A stretch of DNA of 62,843 nt, the filler included, from Perkinsus olseni (Eukaryota), in NCBI GenBank assembly GCA_013115125.1. It is 35 parts of 35 records of this genome, joined end to end, with 100 filler letters (N's around TTAATTAATTAA, not from the genome) between each part and the next. Parts side by side here need not be neighbours in the genome. Positions count along the whole stretch, not along the records: positions 31,011 to 32,713 come from JABANN010001779.1; 34 more parts are not named here. One strand, written 5' to 3'. This document shows positions 29,280-34,513 of the stretch, piece after piece. The notes beneath the pieces were generated by a model. The model worked only from the letters and a program-made list of their open reading frames with translations. It did not search any database and was not told the origin of the DNA. The stretch's first letter is position 1; each line of letters begins with the position of its first letter. A program made the position numbers and the translations under genes.

Positions 29280-30910
29280 ATGTCAGGGCGATCTCCTAAG
29301 GCTGATGCTTCTCAGACTTCTGAGGCTAATGCCCCTCCAGTTTGGGCCTTCCAGCTTAAGCAACAGCTGGATGAGATTCGTCAGCGACAAGATGGTATGG
29401 TTGACGTTGATGTCTTGGAGAAGAGAATGGATCAGCTTTCTACTACAGTTGGTAGTCTGGTTAACAAGTTGGATGGTATTGGACTGCATGGTCAAAGTGT
29501 TGATGGTAGTAATGGTATTTCTTCTGGTACTGGAGCCTCGAGTAGTCCAACGAGTGCTGGTAAAGGTGATCATTCTCCAAAAGGCGGTAGTGCTGATGCG
29601 GGTGGACTTGATATTCTCAAGATTTCTAAAAGGGCTTCTAATTTGGCTAAGCTCGAAAAAGGTGTCTACAAAGGTGTTGGTGATTCTCGTGGGTTTTTGG
29701 CCTTTAAACGAGAGGTGTTATCTAAACCGGAATTTGAGTTTGCGGACTCTAGTTCTGAGACCTCTGCTGCTCTGTTGTATTTCTATGTCCTCGATAATAT
29801 CACTTCGGCATTACAACAGTTGGTCAGCACACGTTGCCGTAAGCAGCAGTGCTCATCGTTTGTGCGGCGCGTTGAGGTATTATGGTCATGCCTTGGTGAG
29901 TACAGCGACTTGGATGACCAAATGGCTCTCCTTAGAAGATGGGAGGGTCTTAGTTGTGGCACTGGTGGTGCTGCTGATGTCGATGTTTTTATATCCAATC
30001 TGGAAGCTGTCAAAGAACAATTGGAAACTGTCAAGGGCAGCTCCGTTTCGGACGTGGAGTGCCGCTCAAGACTATATGCCGGGTTGCCTCTCAAAGGTAA
30101 GGAGTATTTGGATTCCTTATCGTTGGATTCTGTTTCCACCTATACTGATATGTTGAAGGAGGTACGGCGTTGGGCTCAGTTGGATATTAGATATCATTCG
30201 TCGTCGTCATCGACTACCCGAACTGTCACTAGTAAGGTTCCTTTTAAGACCACTGCTGGTAAGAATGGTGACAAAGGTTCGGCTAAGACTACTGTTCCTA
30301 AGACTGCTCAATATGCTGAATTGTATAATGCGGAACCGGTGACTGGTAATGGTGGTCTCACTACGGCAACTGACGGCGATAAGGTGTTGAATGGTGGTCG
30401 GTCAGTTTTCTTATCTGGCGTACCCCGTGGTTGGTCATGGGCTCAGGTTAAGGAACTAGTGAGCAAAATACTTGGCACAAGTGTCGAAGTTTTTGTTACA
30501 CTTCTTTCTCGTCCTGGTGCTTCAGTGTTGAAATTCAGTGATCATAATACTGCTGTCAAGTTTTTGGACTCTTGCCAGGGTTTACGACTGAATGGTCGTC
30601 AGCTTAGATGTCACTTTGATAAATATGAGCGACCTTCTGAGGACCCGTCTGTCTATGTATTGGAAAGGGATCCTTCTGTGGTTGACGCTACTACTGATGA
30701 TGGGACTTCATCGGATAGCGGTGAGTTAGAATGTCATGCGACTGTGCTTCAGTCTGTTGGTGTTGATCGGTTGAACCCTCGTGATGAGAAGTTATGCTCT
30801 CCTGGTCAGGAGCCGAGCTTACACGCTCAGTCGTTGACATTATCTGAGAGTGGGCTCCCTCATCTAGCTGTCTCGTTGGGACGGACTGGTTATGGCACGG
30901 AGGCCTTGGT
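29280..30910 (+). mobile_element. gag: LTR-retrotransposon gag with an RRM, in frame with the start of a protease
   Basis: N-terminal coiled coil, gag-like core (DVDVFISNLEAVKEQL...LYAGLP), RRM at about 30399-30620, ending in LPHLAVSL...EAL, the typical lead-in to DTG/DSG. Confidence 0.7.
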
Positions 30911-31360
30911 NNNNNNNNNNNNNNNNNNNNNNNNNNNNNNNNNNNNNNNNNNNNTTAATTAATTAANNNNNNNNNNNNNNNNNNNNNNNNNNNNNNNNNN
31001 NNNNNNNNNNCCCTAGTGGTTGTCTTGGTTAGGTATCAAGTGGCTGGAGGAAGGGCAGCGGAAGTCCCTGGAACTCCGTAAGAGAGTTTTTGACGGATCG
31101 TAAAGGCCGTGGACTACTCTTACAGATACAGTCGACCGGGGCCCGACGCCCTGTGCGAGGTGTCTCCGATGCCGCTGCAGGGTGCAGGGAGCAGCCCTGG
31201 AAGATGAAGTTGGGAAGCAGGAGGCTGCGAGTGATGGGAGTAAGTCCTACACCCTTAGTTTTCCTCTGGCGAATCCTCGGTCGTTCCATTACTATATTAC
31301 ACTGTTAGAATGATACAAGCATGTATTCTCTAATATTCGCTACGAAGGTGTATATTCCTC

Positions 31361-32641
31361 ATGGGCTGCGTCCTCAGTATCCCAGTCTTTACCTCAGATG
31401 GAAGCCGGAAGAGGAGCCCAGAGATCCGTGACCTGGAAGGCCGTGACCGACAGCAAGGGCGAAGCTTTCTGTACCAATGCTCGAGGTCGAGTGCTGGCAG
31501 CTATGGGGGCGTGGACAAACAGGCTCTTTCCACTGCCATAATCGAAGCCAACGAGGCTCTGGGAAAGACCTTGACCTACTTCTCGATATTTTGCGACCAA
31601 AACGACATTTACTTCGTGTTGAAGTACGAGACTCCGACCAGATGGAAGCAGCTTGCCGATACCCTCCGCAACGAGTACGGCATCTCCACCTCGGTCAGCT
31701 GTGCCATACCCAGGCCAGGGTACAGGACCTGTATGTACCCCGTGTTGTTCTCCTACTGCCTCGAATTGGACCCCAACCCCTACCTATCCCCCAATCACCC
31801 CCACCCCAGCAGCCTCCTCGGGGACGGAGAGAGGCAGGGCTCGAGGGCCAGACGGACTCCAGCTTTGGACGGGGGTGGTCTGCCGGCACTCCCACCTTCA
31901 AGAGGCGCTGAGGAAGAGGGCAATGTCCCTAATGGCGGCGGAGCTCCCGCTGTGAAGCCGGGGGAAGGTTCCCAGTCGATCCTTGATGAGTCTGCGGGCT
32001 GTGTAGAAGGAAGCCCATTGGATAAAGTGGAAGAATGTTTGGAGAGGGGGTGCATTTGTCGCCGCCCCGCCCTGTGGCTGGAGCGGATATCGTCTTTAGT
32101 TGTGCGGAATCTTGGGGACGAGGGAGCGAAGCAGCTGAGAGAGGATATTCGGCAGAACTTGGAACAGGGCCGCTCAAAGGAGACTAATGTGGTTATCTAC
32201 GGTGTGGCCTCCAGTGGCAAGTCCGCCATCCTGCGGCCTCTGACTCACATCTTGAAGTGCGCTAAAATCTCCGAGGCTGAGGGGATCTCCCTTGAAGATT
32301 TACTCGACTGTGAGTGCATCTTGTGGAGTCACTTCTGCGTGGAAGATTTGGGCGACAACTTCGATATGACGACGTTACTCGAACTCCTCGATGGCCGCCC
32401 GGTTAAGATGAACTGCGACCAGGGGAATAGTGGCTCTTTTTTCGACAAGTTGGTGCCGATTTTCCTGACGTGTGATGCGTTCCCTGCCCCCTTAGAAGTT
32501 GAGGGCGGACAGGCCTTACACGAGAGGCTTCAGCGGTGTCACTACTTTCCGTACAAGATGGTGCCCGAGGAGCGGGGGAAGCCGTTCTTATCTTGCAACC
32601 GGTGCTTTGCTGAGTGGCTCTTTGCTGATACACTAGCTTGA
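31361..32641 (+). CDS. CRESS/parvovirus-type Rep-like protein (degenerate HUH domain + SF3 helicase)
   Basis: Walker A GVASSGKS, Walker B-like ILWSHF, B' LLELLDG.PV, motif C PIFLTCD, arginine-finger region ALHERL, terminal CxxC; N-terminal FLYQCS / IYFVL / RW..L...GI / YC. Confidence 0.72.
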   Translation: MGCVLSIPVFTSDGSRKRSPEIRDLEGRDRQQGRSFLYQCSRSSAGSYGGVDKQALSTAIIEANEALGKTLTYFSIFCDQNDIYFVLKYETPTRWKQLADTLRNEYGISTSVSCAIPRPGYRTCMYPVLFSYCLELDPNPYLSPNHPHPSSLLGDGERQGSRARRTPALDGGGLPALPPSRGAEEEGNVPNGGGAPAVKPGEGSQSILDESAGCVEGSPLDKVEECLERGCICRRPALWLERISSLVVRNLGDEGAKQLREDIRQNLEQGRSKETNVVIYGVASSGKSAILRPLTHILKCAKISEAEGISLEDLLDCECILWSHFCVEDLGDNFDMTTLLELLDGRPVKMNCDQGNSGSFFDKLVPIFLTCDAFPAPLEVEGGQALHERLQRCHYFPYKMVPEERGKPFLSCNRCFAEWLFADTLA

Positions 32642-32813
32642 CCTCAGCATCAATATTTGTGTTTCCTTTCTACTGCGGTTTAGTTTATGTCAATTCGTCC
32701 GACCATCGTCTCCNNNNNNNNNNNNNNNNNNNNNNNNNNNNNNNNNNNNNNNNNNNNTTAATTAATTAANNNNNNNNNNNNNNNNNNNNNNNNNNNNNNN
32801 NNNNNNNNNNNNN

Positions 32814-34513
32814 GTCGCGGAGAGAGTAATATCGCTTGTTGTGGGCGAACTGACATTGATCACAAGAACGGCAGACCTCAATGGCAAGCTTCCTCAAGCC
32901 CTTGACGAAGAATGCCCTGGAGAAGATCCATCGAACATACCTCGCGTTGAGACACCCTGAGTCGTTGTGATATGACCGTAGCAACCTCCTAGCATAGTCG
33001 ATACCATCCTGAGAATCAGAGGGAACATAGAAGCAGAGACGTGAAGAGCTGTTCCATGTGTTCGAACGACAACGTCGCATGAGCACACCGTCTCCCGCAA
33101 GCACGAACTCTAAGTCGTTGGGCTCCGAAGCACCGTCTGCCCCCCTGATCCTGTCGATGATGGCCGATACCTCCGGCGAGCCACGCTGAAGGTCCAATAA
33201 CCTTTTTCGATCCGGTTGACCGGCCCCGACGCGGAGATCGTCGGGAACGCGTGGAGCATGATCCTCGGAGATGGCAAAAATGACCGCCGACACCGTGTCG
33301 AGCTCACCGGCCTCATCCGCAACAGTGGACTGCGAGCCCGAGCCCGCGAGAGCTTGAGATGGCAAGGGGGTGATGACCTTGCGCGCCGTGTTTGCCGCGC
33401 CCTTGGACCCCTTGAACCGACCATCGAAGATGACGACCTGAGGAATATTCCAGGAATGTGCCAAACGGCTGAGAATATCAGCTTGAGAGTTCTGCTCGGC
33501 CGGGAAATGTTCCACTACCGGATGGATATCATAACGTCGTGCCCAAACCTCCTTAAGGTCTGCCACTGCATCACACAGCCTGGAGATTGCAATCCGTTCG
33601 ATCGAGCGACTGGTCATCCTCTCACCGCCCCGCATCCAGGAGAGGGCAGTCCGAGAGTCAGTCAGGAACCGTACCGTGAGACCATTGCAGTATGGTATCA
33701 GAGCGTCACAGAAGACGAAGGACAGACCGAGGCAGTATGCTTCTTGACGGTTCTGGTGCCACGACACTTGGCTGCCGCGCCAGCACTTGGCCTTGCCGCA
33801 CAGAGCAACCTGCCCCCCTGAGGCAGTACCGATGGAGAGACAGAAGCCCATACCGTATGGGGAGGCGTCGGTGGTGATAGTGAGTGTGGTGCCCGAGAAA
33901 GCGATGTCATGCTGACAGAGCTCATTACGTTCGGCCAACCGAGAACAGGCGATGGTGATTGTCTGAGCATCCTCCTCGCTGATCGCAACCTTCTCGTCCC
34001 AAGAGGTAGGCGACCATTTCCCCGACGCACGTCTTATCAGATCAGCCGCTAGCGACCCCTCGGGATGGAGGCCTAACACATCGTAGCCAGCACCTGCCCA
34101 CCGAAAGGCTTCACGCTTGCTGACGAGGTCCCCGGCCGACAGTTTCCTAGGAGAGAGCGATGAAGGAAGACACTGCAGACGAATGGTCCGTCCACCCTCG
34201 CACCGGACGCATAGGAACCGAACTCCTAGGTGACGAAAGTCGTCGAAGTCATCACAGAAGCCGTCGCTACCGAAGAAGACCCAATGGGTCTTACGCTCCG
34301 AGAAGGTGAAGCCCCAGGCCGCACCGGTCGCGATGATGGCGGAATAAAGGCTCTTGACTGCCACCACCTCTCCAAGCAATGTGATATCATCAACATAGGC
34401 CCAACAGTAGAGTGGCGGTTTGTGATCGTCCAACTGGCTGTGCTCGACCTTCGCCACCGCGGCGGTGAGCAACCCCGACATGGCTTCCTCAAGGATGGCT
34501 GGTCCTGCCCGAT
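32814..34513 (-). mobile_element. pol: BEL/Pao-like pol: RT, RNase H and start of the integrase zinc domain
   Basis: AYVDD, YDVLGL, TTDASPYG, NRQE, LTDS, ADILSR, H...G...CDQC. Confidence 0.85.

Follow-up and report, generated by a model that had tools for sequence, protein, structure and literature searches.

The closest described systems in terms of layout are NS1 of parvoviruses and Rep68-Rep40 of AAV2 (Cossaviricota), which have the same N-terminal HUH-fold domain and SF3 helicase as the protein described here. Papillomavirus E1 and polyomavirus large T antigen also share this layout, with an origin-binding domain of the same fold followed by an SF3 helicase. Their origin-binding domains are HUH-derived and nuclease-dead, and they are thought to have been born of a loss-of-catalysis step similar to that envisaged below. 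According to two reports, endogenous Reps of ssDNA viruses are found in eukaryotic nuclear genomes, some of them open and expressed (Liu et al. 2011, PMC3198968; PMC9707805), and like our locus they are Rep-derived sequences resident in a nuclear genome. In the former, the word 'Perkinsus' occurs 0 times. Helitrons and Replitrons (PMC10288648) likewise encode a eukaryotic chromosomal Rep-class HUH protein. The Helitron RepHel protein combines a Y2 Rep and an SF1B (Pif1-like) helicase in one chain, whereas the Replitron transposase has a Y1 Rep with no fused helicase. We considered both identities for our protein and rejected them, the first because its helicase is of the SF3 and not the SF1B type, the second because of its fused SF3 domain.

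The window, i.e., the whole stretch of 62,843 nucleotides of Perkinsus olseni DNA that was analysed, is made up of 36 segments with 35 N44+TTAATTAATTAA+N44 spacers between them. P. olseni is a parasite of oysters and clams, and its genus is placed in the Perkinsozoa, which are sister to the dinoflagellates. One segment is a real contig of 1,703 bp (31011-32713, no strand assigned), with such an artificial spacer on each side, and it carries the gene of interest on the + strand. Our best explanation, to which we give an even chance as a whole, is that this gene is nuclear, spliced and transcribed in P. olseni and that it codes for a co-opted, non-catalytic derivative of a Rep protein.

Gene structure on a short contig

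An earlier note on this DNA had described a complete intronless ORF of 426 amino acids. An ATG-to-stop frame of 426 codons does exist at 31361-32641 on the + strand, and a database protein recorded on a 1,703-nt contig (P0001) is 100% identical to its product. However, it corresponds to the 3'-terminal exon of a longer, multi-exon gene. A 194-nt contig of run X1 bridges 31077 to 31126 and 31239 to 31398, and both introns are of the GT..AG type. All on the + strand, the contig harbours an internal exon coding for the coiled-coil part of an N-terminal extension (31033-31077, after an AG acceptor at 31031-31032), a first intron of 48 nt (31078-31125, GTAAGA...TTACAG), an exon with a Cys-rich CxxCxxCxC sequence and an acidic stretch that is kept in the paralogs P0002, P0004 and P0009 (31126-31239), a second intron of 158 nt (31240-31397, GTAAGT...CCTCAG) and the last exon (31398-32641), including the stop codon at 32639-32641. 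On the upstream side, a second X1 contig extends for 244 nt beyond 31033 into sequence absent from the gene's contig. The frame of the coiled-coil exon agrees with the N-termini of P0002 and P0004, and the spliced frame, open over 466 codons, matches the N-termini of paralogs. This N-terminal extension is Perkinsus-specific and lies on separate exons.

As the ATG at 31361 is inside intron 2, the idea that an MGC start might serve as an acylation signal falls. The remark that no capsid ORF adjoins the gene on its contig carries no information, since that contig is just 1,703 bp between N spacers and its neighbours in the window are joined segments. The frame did not arise by chance, because 466 codons are open and single-sequence tblastn searches with distant relatives match the ORF at E values of 1.8e-17 and 1e-10. 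The type of library X1 is only guessed, so that a processed DNA copy is a conceivable source of the spliced contig. X1 cover is zero in the bins 31296-31352, 32208-32264 and 32607-32713. Runs X2-X4, labelled as another organism, contributed only pieces of 179-237 nt, at 100% identity.

Two domains, and the residues lost and kept

The earlier note had proposed a Rep architecture, and the profile and structure matches bear it out, with a predicted HUH-fold domain followed by an SF3 helicase. The AF2 model has an overall pLDDT of 80.7, and 90.4 for the N domain modelled alone, values that lean on the alignment of intact relatives and are no proof that the window copy folds. From this model and from VIA, the HUH-endonuclease-fold domain is placed at residues 15-143, numbered from 31400 (31442-31828, + strand), with the predicted five-stranded antiparallel sheet and flanking helices of a Rep nuclease. 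Its 12 best VIA matches are all Rep nuclease or origin-binding domains, over 87-120 aligned residues, at Z scores of 9.1-6.9, which for values of 7-9 is near the tool's stated background. In Foldseek, the C-terminal part retrieves E1 at 4.5e-7; the N domain is weaker, with nothing at E<=0.001 and a best value of 3.8e-3 when searched alone.

As for the nuclease, the catalytic Tyr of motif III is present and motif I and the His pair of motif II are missing. The degenerate motif I (S-F-L-Y-Q-C-S, 31463-31483, + strand) has a Gln where 23/24 non-Perkinsus relatives have Thr. In the degenerate HUH region (31595-31627, + strand), the second His, present in 24/24 relatives, is replaced with Tyr, the loop is shortened, and the position of the first His is either occupied by Asp or deleted, according to where gaps are placed; MAFFT aligns D-x-N with the upstream E-x-H. 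The reading D-I-Y-F-V-L at the HUH position, with the metal-binding histidines gone, was thus correct. The sequence H-A-H is retained in the relatives from P. marinus and P. chesapeaki. The replacements in the window protein suggest that nuclease activity would be fully lost. The Asp at the first-His position could still bind metal. In the motif III region (31730-31765, + strand), both family-conserved tyrosines, Y113 and Y119, are kept and there is no Lys at +3. The missing Lys had been taken for erosion, but many relatives with an intact HUH motif also lack it. Between the HUH region and motif III, the 8 Perkinsus-type rows of alignment A1 agree at 12 of the 13 residues of the sequence T-P-T-R-W-K-Q-L-A-D-T-L-R (31631-31669, + strand; modelled as helix 82-93), all but the alanine.

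A low-confidence, fast-evolving linker follows (residues 144-201, pLDDT below 50; 31829-32002, + strand), and then a helical region, of the oligomerisation type, with the SF3 helicase domain (residues 202-413; 32003-32638, + strand). VIA aligns the C-terminal part with AAV2 Rep40 (Z 16.9, 192 residues aligned, rmsd 3.2), E1 (Z 16.3) and NS1 (Z 14.1), and the family profile retrieves AAV2 Rep40 (1.1e-7), B19 NS1 (5.5e-6) and E1 (1.9e-4) from the PDB. In BFVD, alignments of 392-584 columns (for a query of 413 residues) extend to E1, NS1 and CRESS Rep proteins at E values of 1e-11 to 1e-9, and the look-alikes in the ESM Atlas belong for the most part to Parvo_NS1 clusters. The fold, the Walker A motif and the arginine finger of SF3 helicases are present, and the Walker B acid and the motif C Asn are not. 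Walker A is intact, as had been noted (GVASSGKS, 32201-32224, + strand; G273 and K274 conserved). The Walker B strand (32309-32335, + strand) reads W-S-H-F, as had also been noted: His replaces an acidic residue that is Asp in 20/24 non-Perkinsus relatives and that aligns with the second Glu of the E-E pair in AAV Rep. In the arginine-finger region (32516-32536, + strand), R376 is kept, as it is in 24/24 relatives; it aligns with the Arg of Q-D-R-M in AAV Rep, which we take to be the arginine finger. A C-terminal C-x-x-C (32594-32611, + strand) and C218/C220 (32048-32077) make up four family-conserved cysteines, possibly a zinc site.

Motif C (P-I-F-L-T-C-D, 32456-32476, + strand) keeps its Pro, Phe and Thr. 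Its sensor Asn, found in P0005 and P0006, is Asp in the window protein. While the reading T-C-D was right, its interpretation as erosion was not, as this position varies across the family (K, S, D, I or G); the missing Asn is a poor sign of decay. All in all, there is catalytic erosion, at the His pair, the motif I Thr and the Walker B Asp, but it is narrower than had been claimed.

Could the protein be a generic P-loop protein whose N domain is ferredoxin-like by chance, rather than a Rep? On its own, it stays below Pfam cut-offs (PPV_E1_C, 16.1 vs 26.5 bits; AAA_16, 18.3 vs 32.6) and phmmer finds 0 matches in the PDB at E<=10. Nevertheless, the family alignment displays the full ordered set of motifs I, II (HUH) and III, Walker A, Walker B, motif C and arginine finger, so that relatives have ordered motifs over both domains, and the tblastn matches also span both. 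Together with the profile and structure matches to Rep40, E1 and NS1, by VIA for the N domain and in BFVD, this makes a chance resemblance hardly credible.

Among the 38 columns conserved at >=80% in the 24 non-Perkinsus relatives, 28 are kept in the window protein, and the losses affect 5/7 nuclease positions vs 5/31 others (Fisher p=0.008). The relatives from P. marinus and P. chesapeaki retain all seven nuclease positions. Conservation along the protein is uneven: identity to P0006 of P. marinus is 55% in the helicase, 52% in the N domain and 17% in the linker, and identity to P0003, which is nuclease-dead too, is 76%, 54% and 43%, respectively. The domain-to-linker ratio, a proxy for selection only, is 2-3x vs P. 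marinus and P0005 and about 1.3-1.8x between two nuclease-dead paralogs. The window protein and P0002 are 88% identical, have lost both His and share the same substitutions, which implies that the frame survived that loss intact. By this proxy, constraint would have continued once catalysis was gone.

These data bear on the possibility that the gene is a neutral relic, namely an endogenised copy of a Rep element that is decaying while still open, has no function and owes its transcription to read-through or a residual promoter. The presence of multiple copies in P. olseni, truncated ones among them, would agree with such decay, as would the location of our copy on a 1.7-kb unplaced contig and the loss of different catalytic residues in different paralogs (both His in the window protein and P0002, the first His and the catalytic Tyr in P0003 and P0005). 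However, a decaying copy hardly accounts for 466 open codons with correct GT..AG splicing, for losses gathered at catalytic positions while 26/31 others are kept, for folded domains better conserved than the linker, or for a frame that outlasted the substitutions shared with P0002. We consider a neutral relic unlikely, if still a serious candidate.

Rather, the gene might well be a co-opted, non-catalytic Rep derivative. Splicing, transcription, the N-terminal extension and the contrast in conservation between domains and linker make the co-option proposed in the earlier note plausible, although our confidence in it is evenly balanced. It descends from a replication initiator of the Rep type found in small DNA viruses and mobile elements and belongs to a clade of such proteins that is specific to Perkinsus. 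With the metal site of the nuclease and the Walker B carboxylate gone, the window copy would neither nick nor unwind DNA, and it probably serves a new, non-catalytic use. It may act as a nucleotide-binding, oligomerising and DNA-binding protein without catalysis, for which the nuclease-dead origin-binding domains of E1 and large T antigen provide a precedent. The coiled coil and Cys-rich exons added at the N-terminus might mediate dimerisation or targeting. We surmise that its likeliest business would be to bind the sequences of related Rep-bearing elements or to poison their hexamers.

The latter possibility has a more specific form, already suggested in the earlier note, in which the protein is a dominant-negative defence factor that co-assembles with the Rep of an invader and blocks its hexamer. 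In hexamers of SF3 initiators, subunits mutated at the ATPase site have a trans-dominant effect, and the window protein has the corresponding profile, with P-loop, arginine finger and the helical region before the ATPase kept and Walker B lost. Nevertheless, its identity to intact relatives is about 20%, which makes co-assembly doubtful, and our searches found neither an exogenous Perkinsus virus nor an intact P. olseni Rep. As a special case of co-option, a defence role thus appears quite improbable.

Paralogs, distant relatives and their transposase neighbours

The Perkinsus sequences form a single clade in our tree (SH-aLRT 100). The family is multi-copy in P. olseni, where P0004 and P0007 are cut to the N-terminal half and a 276-kb contig carries the paralogs FOZ60_005533 and FOZ60_005534; the P. 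marinus gene is on an 85-kb scaffold. Truncated copies and a 1.7-kb unplaced contig fit a decaying repeat family as well. The search for catalytically intact paralogs was successful in part: all the nuclease residues are found in P. marinus and P. chesapeaki, and in none of the three two-domain P. olseni clusters, of which P0003 is nearest to the intact P. marinus form (46%). The intact proteins of P. marinus and P. chesapeaki and the nuclease- and ATPase-dead copies of P. olseni would thus offer a natural series from an initiator to a non-catalytic host protein.

Searching with a profile built from the Perkinsus proteins yields 299 proteins at E<=1e-3, including 76 at E<=1e-10, and the catalytically intact relatives are a large unnamed family. 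In the one clade whose DNA context was readable, which corresponds to metagenome contigs L001-L080, intact relatives occur with a Tc1/mariner transposase. A Rep with an adjoining Tc1/mariner transposase gene is present at 17/17 loci with >=1,500 nt downstream, and 27/28 of the neighbour ORFs tested were identified as such a transposase. No capsid-like ORF was detected on the contigs of the relatives examined, the partner being the transposase. One cluster of relatives comprises 13 members that are >=90% identical, most of them located on long contigs, the largest reaching 2.46 Mb. Queries with P0015, P0020 or alignment A4 found no relative among the viral contigs of IMG/VR. As a readable clade of intact relatives is tied to a transposase and shows no capsid gene, the earlier conclusion that an ssDNA virus must have been present in the host lineage does not follow. 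More generally, Rep matches in protist genomes need not mean capsid-forming ssDNA viruses.

This association raises the question of whether the window protein might be an accessory or regulatory subunit of a still-mobile Perkinsus element, working in trans with a competent Rep or transposase. The 17/17 loci and 27/28 neighbour ORFs with a transposase in the readable intact clade are in line with this idea, as are the 13-member cluster on contigs of up to 2.46 Mb and the seven nuclease positions kept by P. marinus and P. chesapeaki. However, no intact P. olseni Rep is among the three two-domain clusters, and 0/3 Tc1-like transposases from the metagenome loci match the other window segments by tblastn at 1e-3. 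Besides, the Perkinsus sequences branch outside the clade linked to transposases, and the introns and added N-terminal exons look host-like. We regard a role as an element subunit as improbable.

In a tentative scenario, the gene would have been domesticated in Perkinsus from a large and apparently undescribed class of eukaryotic mobile elements with Rep and Tc1/mariner genes. Such elements would combine an initiator of about 450 aa, with HUH and parvovirus-like SF3 domains, and a DDE transposase in units of 4-5 kb with iteron-studded palindromes, and they would be present in numerous copies on chromosomes but also in circular or tandem form. They might be transposons that also replicate as episomes, of which Perkinsus would have kept the DNA-binding and oligomerising shell without the chemistry. 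In open-access PMC and bioRxiv, we found no paper on a Perkinsus Rep, on PMAR022755 or on a mariner/Tc1 transposase with an HUH and SF3 Rep, and no report of a Perkinsus virus or Rep-bearing element. If the units with Rep and transposase are truly undescribed, they would represent a new way of joining replication and transposition in eukaryotic mobile DNA.

Comparison with known initiators and mobile elements

The specific label 'CRESS-like' given in the earlier note was not upheld, as the profile and the fold of the helicase are closest to AAV Rep, parvovirus NS1 and E1. We compared the protein with the Reps of Vientovirus/Redondoviridae, geminiviruses, circoviruses, nanoviruses and smacoviruses and with RepB of plasmid pMV158. 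It is the N domain that most resembles this set, its best VIA matches being Vientovirus Reps (Z 9.1 and 8.8), RepB (8.3) and TYLCV Rep (8.2). Of the Pfam models Viral_Rep and Gemini_AL1, the latter alone gave matches, all below threshold, with 1/8 Perkinsus-type proteins (E 0.022) and 3/36 relatives. Unlike the solved CRESS Reps that it matches, the window protein is about 150 residues longer and has a long linker, and its helicase is nearer to NS1 and E1. Moreover, the gene is nuclear and spliced, whereas in Cressdnaviricota it would be part of a small circular genome with a capsid gene. As for endogenous viral Reps, the Perkinsus family differs from them in that it is not recognisably of the Circoviridae, Geminiviridae, Nanoviridae or Parvoviridae and has gained introns and exons.

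Among viral initiators, AAV2 Rep40 is the best profile match in the PDB (E 1.1e-7) and also the structure that the C-terminal part resembles most (Z 16.9). The Pfam cut-off of 20 for Parvo_NS1 is passed by 2/36 distant relatives, P0018 and P0019 (25.1 and 21.2 bits), whereas the window protein, from which the HUH histidines and the Walker B acid are missing, has no match to this model at E<=1. In contrast with parvovirus NS1 and AAV Rep, it is encoded by a spliced nuclear gene, has an added coiled-coil and Cys-rich N-terminus and carries the family-specific motif L-S-x-x-H-P and the CxC...CxxC set of cysteines. The N domain also matches the origin-binding domain of large T antigen (VIA Z 8.1) and the DNA-binding domain of E1 (Z 7.3). 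Those are viral proteins with an active ATPase, unlike the product of this spliced host gene, which is devoid of the Walker B acid.

The metagenomic units L001-L080 belong to the same family as the window protein, with about 20% identity over both domains (tblastn E 1e-10) and the motifs L-S-x-x-H-P, CxC...W and CxxC-F-A in common. Unlike the window gene, their Reps keep all the catalytic residues and are encoded by one ORF that needs no intron. They always lie opposite a DDE_3/HTH_Tnp_Tc3_2 transposase gene, and they form a clade separate from that of Perkinsus (SH-aLRT 100).

Rep ancestry from relatives and predicted fold

Taken alone, the window protein is nearly silent. Against Pfam it matched PPV_E1_C (E 0.0067, 16.1 bits for a cut-off of 26.5) and AAA_16 (E 0.0034), and phmmer found no match to it in the PDB. 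Its Rep identity is therefore established through its relatives. A word-indexed search returned seven proteins, and those with an organism given are all from Perkinsus. Identity to the window protein is 87% for P0002, 62% for P0003, 49% for P0005 and 44% for P. marinus PMAR022755 (P0006), while P0004 and P0007, whose genes adjoin on a 276-kb contig, span the N-terminal half only. A profile of the Perkinsus proteins run against 1.84 billion representatives retrieved 299 sequences at E<=1e-3, of which 76 reach E<=1e-10 and 8 reach E<=1e-30.

The alignment of 30 two-domain family members displays the nuclease motifs in the order u-Y-L-x-T-x-S (motif I), H-x-H (II) and Y-x-x-A-F-x-Y (III). These are followed by L-D-x-x-P-x-L-S-x-x-H-P and C-x-C...W, then by the helicase motifs G-x-x-N-C-G-K-T-F (Walker A), E-x-x-x-x-N-D-F-R (Walker B) and P-I-F-x-T-S (motif C), and then by M-M-x-x-R (Arg finger) and C-x-R-C-F-A. 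In Pfam, 15 of 36 distant members matched one or more of the Rep or SF3 families Parvo_NS1, PPV_E1_C, REP_ORF2-G2P, Gemini_AL1 and RNA_helicase at E<=0.01, and two of the 36 exceeded the curated Parvo_NS1 cut-off. In the PDB, the alignment profile matched AAV2 Rep40/Rep68 (E 1.1e-7 to 4.7e-7), B19 NS1 (5.5e-6) and E1 (1.9e-4), and its N-terminal part weakly matched CRESS/geminivirus Rep nuclease domains (7vg8, 0.041; 1l2m, 0.14).

The AlphaFold2 model built from the same alignment (mean pLDDT 80.7) has two confident domains joined by a disordered linker (residues 144-201, counted from position 31400). The top Foldseek matches in the PDB are SF3 initiators only, E1 (4.5e-7) and AAV Rep68 (6.8e-7), then SV40 large T and B19 NS1. 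With VIA-align, run against 48,161 chains, residues ~200-413 matched AAV2 Rep40 (Z 16.9, 192 aligned, rmsd 3.2), E1 (Z 16.3) and NS1 (Z 14.1), and residues 15-134 the Vientovirus Rep nuclease domain (Z 8.9). Modelled singly, the N domain reached a pLDDT of 90.4, and its 12 best VIA matches are all Rep nuclease or origin-binding domains, including Vientovirus Rep (Z 9.1 and 8.8), pMV158 RepB (8.3), TYLCV Rep (8.2), SV40 T-antigen OBD (8.1), duck circovirus Rep (7.6), E1 DBD (7.3), nanovirus M-Rep (7.2) and smacovirus Rep (7.2), all values close to the tool's stated background of 7-8. The best Foldseek match of this domain alone is only 3.8e-3. The fold call relies on the consistency of the match list together with the motifs, and no single score carries it. 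BFVD alignments of 392-584 columns, for a query of 413 residues, to E1, parvovirus NS1 and CRESS Reps have E values of 8e-12 to 3e-9, and most look-alikes in the ESM Atlas belong to Parvo_NS1 clusters, with a eukaryotic 'Replication-associated protein family' cluster in addition.

The window gene is thus almost certainly a derivative of the Rep family. Motifs, profile and predicted-fold matches all bear out the proposed combination of an N-terminal Rep-type domain with an SF3 helicase, and the predicted architecture is that of a Shotokuvirae-type initiator. The label 'CRESS-like' is over-specific, as the helicase is closest to the parvovirus/papillomavirus kind.

Contig setting and spliced gene

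The 62,843-base window contains 70 runs of exactly 44 N, paired about the 12-mer TTAATTAATTAA every ~1.8 kb. The resulting 35 spacers, N44+TTAATTAATTAA+N44 (e.g. 30911-31010 and 32714-32813), delimit 36 contigs of ~1.7-1.8 kb in falling order of length, and any inference of gene order across a spacer is an artefact. The Rep gene lies on a contig of 1,703 bp (31011-32713) bounded by such artificial spacers, and the lack of a capsid ORF on so short a contig, pointed out in the earlier note, is uninformative. So are the flanking ORFs, because they are located on other contigs: a 560-aa ORF with a weak RRM match (29280-30962, + strand) and a 571-aa ORF with reverse transcriptase, RNase H and integrase zinc-finger matches (32766-34481, - strand), both cut by a spacer. 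The latter is a retrotransposon pol fragment. One database protein, P. olseni FOZ61_002731 (P0001, 'partial'), is 100% identical to the window gene's product, and its recorded contig measures 1,703 nt as well.

The ORF at 31361-32641, ATG to stop, 426 aa, is present, yet the gene is neither complete nor intronless, as had been claimed. We aligned Logan contigs from four public runs to the gene's contig. A 194-nt contig of one run (X1) joins 31077 to 31126 and 31239 to 31398, skipping 48 and 158 nt, each GT..AG, for which a spliced transcript is the parsimonious reading. A second X1 contig covers 31033-31069 and continues into 244 nt absent from the gene's contig, with an AG immediately before 31033; the actual protein start is upstream, beyond the contig edge. 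Joining exons 31035-31077, 31126-31239 and 31398-32641 by their coordinates gives an open frame of 466 codons. The X1 exon boundaries differ from those of the NCBI model P0001 over 31033-31239, where they bring back a Cys-rich stretch present in paralogs. The first 60 residues of the spliced frame give local scores of 288 and 298 with the N-termini of P0002 and P0004, a much better match than that of P0001 to the paralogs (176). Because ATG 31361 falls within an intron, the suggested MGC acylation signal fails.

The N-terminal part of the spliced protein, found in Perkinsus members only, comprises a heptad-like stretch and a CxxCxxCxC cluster. Four other proteins, P. olseni being among their sources (P0010, P0011, P0012 and P0016), have a coiled-coil, Cys-cluster and HUH-fold module without helicase, in tandem in P0011, with one His at the HUH position in each. 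A 603-nt X1 contig matches 31451-31919 with three differences and then switches to P0007-like sequence; either it is an assembly chimera or it comes from a transcript, that of a nearly identical paralog or of a recombinant copy.

Catalytic erosion and constraint

In 24 non-Perkinsus rows of the alignment, 38 columns are at least 80% conserved (start Met dropped), and the window protein retains 28 of them. Losses are concentrated in the nuclease motifs, at five of seven positions versus five of the other 31 (Fisher exact p=0.008). The motif I Thr is replaced by Gln. In the E-x-H just ahead of the HUH strand, E has become D and H has become N. The second HUH His is Tyr, and the first is Asp in an ungapped comparison or deleted according to MAFFT, with a preceding loop ~10 residues shorter. 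The Walker B Asp is His, and three or four conserved positions outside the motifs are also changed. Retained are both motif III tyrosines, R81/W82, D124, S130, H133/P134, four cysteines, W226, the entire P-loop, the motif C P-x-F-x-T and the Arg finger. The loss of HUH and Walker B residues with an intact P-loop, read initially from the single sequence, thus holds against distant relatives. Two supposed signs of erosion do not: relatives whose HUH is perfect likewise lack the Lys that follows the catalytic Tyr, and at the position of the motif C Asn the residue varies family-wide.

The retained cysteines form a CxC (32048-32077) before the helicase and a CxxC (32594-32611) at the C-terminus, conserved in the window protein and at least 22 of the 24 distant relatives. 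From this sequence pattern, they may constitute a putative zinc site linking both ends of the helicase module. Such a set is not known from AAV Rep, E1 or CRESS Reps.

Within Perkinsus, P. marinus P0006 and P. chesapeaki P0008 have all seven nuclease positions, and P0006 also has the Walker B Asp. P0003 and P0005 have the second His, while the first is gone and the catalytic Tyr is His; the window protein and P0002 have lost both histidines and kept the Tyr. We found no P. olseni protein nearer than P0003 (46%) to the intact P. marinus form. All catalytic substitutions of the window protein are common to P0002, and since the two share them at 88% identity, the frame remained open after the catalytic loss.

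Regional identity to the window protein was used as a proxy for selection, in place of dN/dS. For the N domain, the linker and the helical plus SF3 part, respectively, it is 93, 83 and 87% with P0002, 54, 43 and 76% with P0003, 45, 23 and 57% with P0005, and 52, 17 and 55% with P0006. Beyond the former HUH strand, the eight Perkinsus-type rows all agree at 12 of the 13 positions of the helix T-P-T-R-W-K-Q-L-A-D-T-L-R. This pattern of conservation, the splicing and the added exons lead us to prefer co-option over a neutral relic of a decaying Rep element, an alternative kept alive by the existence of truncated paralogs and by the location of the window copy on an unplaced 1.7-kb contig. That the window protein is selected and non-catalytic is an evenly balanced proposition. 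The earlier view is partly supported: an eroded, probably co-opted Rep stands, and a specifically CRESS-like origin and an ssDNA virus in the lineage do not follow.

If co-opted, the N domain, deprived of two histidines and the motif I Thr, would be unable to hold the metal for nicking, and the SF3 domain, deprived of the Walker B carboxylate, would bind ATP and not hydrolyse it. The protein might then work through DNA binding and oligomerisation, with assistance from the N-terminal coiled coil, its target being either a host process or a related mobile element, which it would repress or whose hexamers it would poison. In E1 and large T antigen, a nuclease-dead HUH fold serves as a sequence-specific DNA-binding module, and both the E1 DBD and the SV40 T-antigen OBD are among the 12 best VIA matches of the N domain.

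Mobile relatives, origin and known systems

Many distant members (ENA, JGI and Logan records) are on contigs of 1.5-6 kb and some on contigs of 0.1-8.8 Mb. The P0174 cluster (>=90% identity) has 13 members, the majority on large contigs that reach 2.46 Mb, and its copy pattern is that of a transposon. Three scans of IMG/VR viral contigs returned no relative. Fusions to WW, SAM, DnaJ, dsRNA-binding or zinc-ribbon domains occur in some members, among them the intact Rep relatives P0013, P0023, P0050, P0044, P0087 and P0017, and suggest repeated capture into host-type genes also outside Perkinsus.

Scanning metagenome contigs with a 17-row alignment yielded 211 relatives, of which 80 loci were kept. 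Besides the Rep, the one gene that recurs in them is a ~365-aa ORF on the opposite strand, and no recurrent capsid-like ORF was found among them. Pfam matches to DDE_3 and/or HTH_Tnp_Tc3_2 in 27 of 28 such ORFs indicate that they are Tc1/mariner-type DDE transposases. An HMM detects this ORF in 33 of the 80 loci. It is present, always on the opposite strand, in each of the 17 loci whose sequence extends 1,500 nt or more downstream of the Rep match. The units, 4-5 kb long, combine an intact HUH+SF3 Rep of ~450 aa with the ~365-aa transposase (e.g. L012:1-4211, L048:1-4184 and L002:1-5521). In four contigs the two ends are exact direct repeats of 110-123 nt, with units of 4.06-4.53 kb, which means a circle or a tandem array. 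An iteron-built palindrome sits between the 3' ends of the two genes: that of L048 measures 2x102 nt, with 99% complementarity and a T|A centre, and that of L012 is made up of a 10-mer repeated in inverted arrays. L002 has 11-nt iterons, with inverted arms 5 kb apart that resemble terminal inverted repeats.

In a quick IQ-TREE analysis of 55 rows, one 34-row clade (SH-aLRT 100) takes in all 18 transposase-linked Reps. The Perkinsus sequences, five rows, group outside it in a clade of their own (SH-aLRT 100), on a long branch of 1.74 that meets other long branches, as the tool warned. The source of the Perkinsus genes is a member of this Rep family, and may have come with a transposase, a capsid or neither.

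In the open-access PMC and bioRxiv literature, we found neither a paper on a Rep-like gene in Perkinsus nor a report of a mariner/Tc1 transposase combined with an HUH+SF3 Rep. Rep transfers to eukaryotes were described by Liu et al. 2011 (PMC3198968), in the text of which 'Perkinsus' has no occurrence. Replitrons have no helicase (PMC10288648). The Helitron helicase is of the SF1B type. The window protein differs from both in possessing an SF3 helicase.
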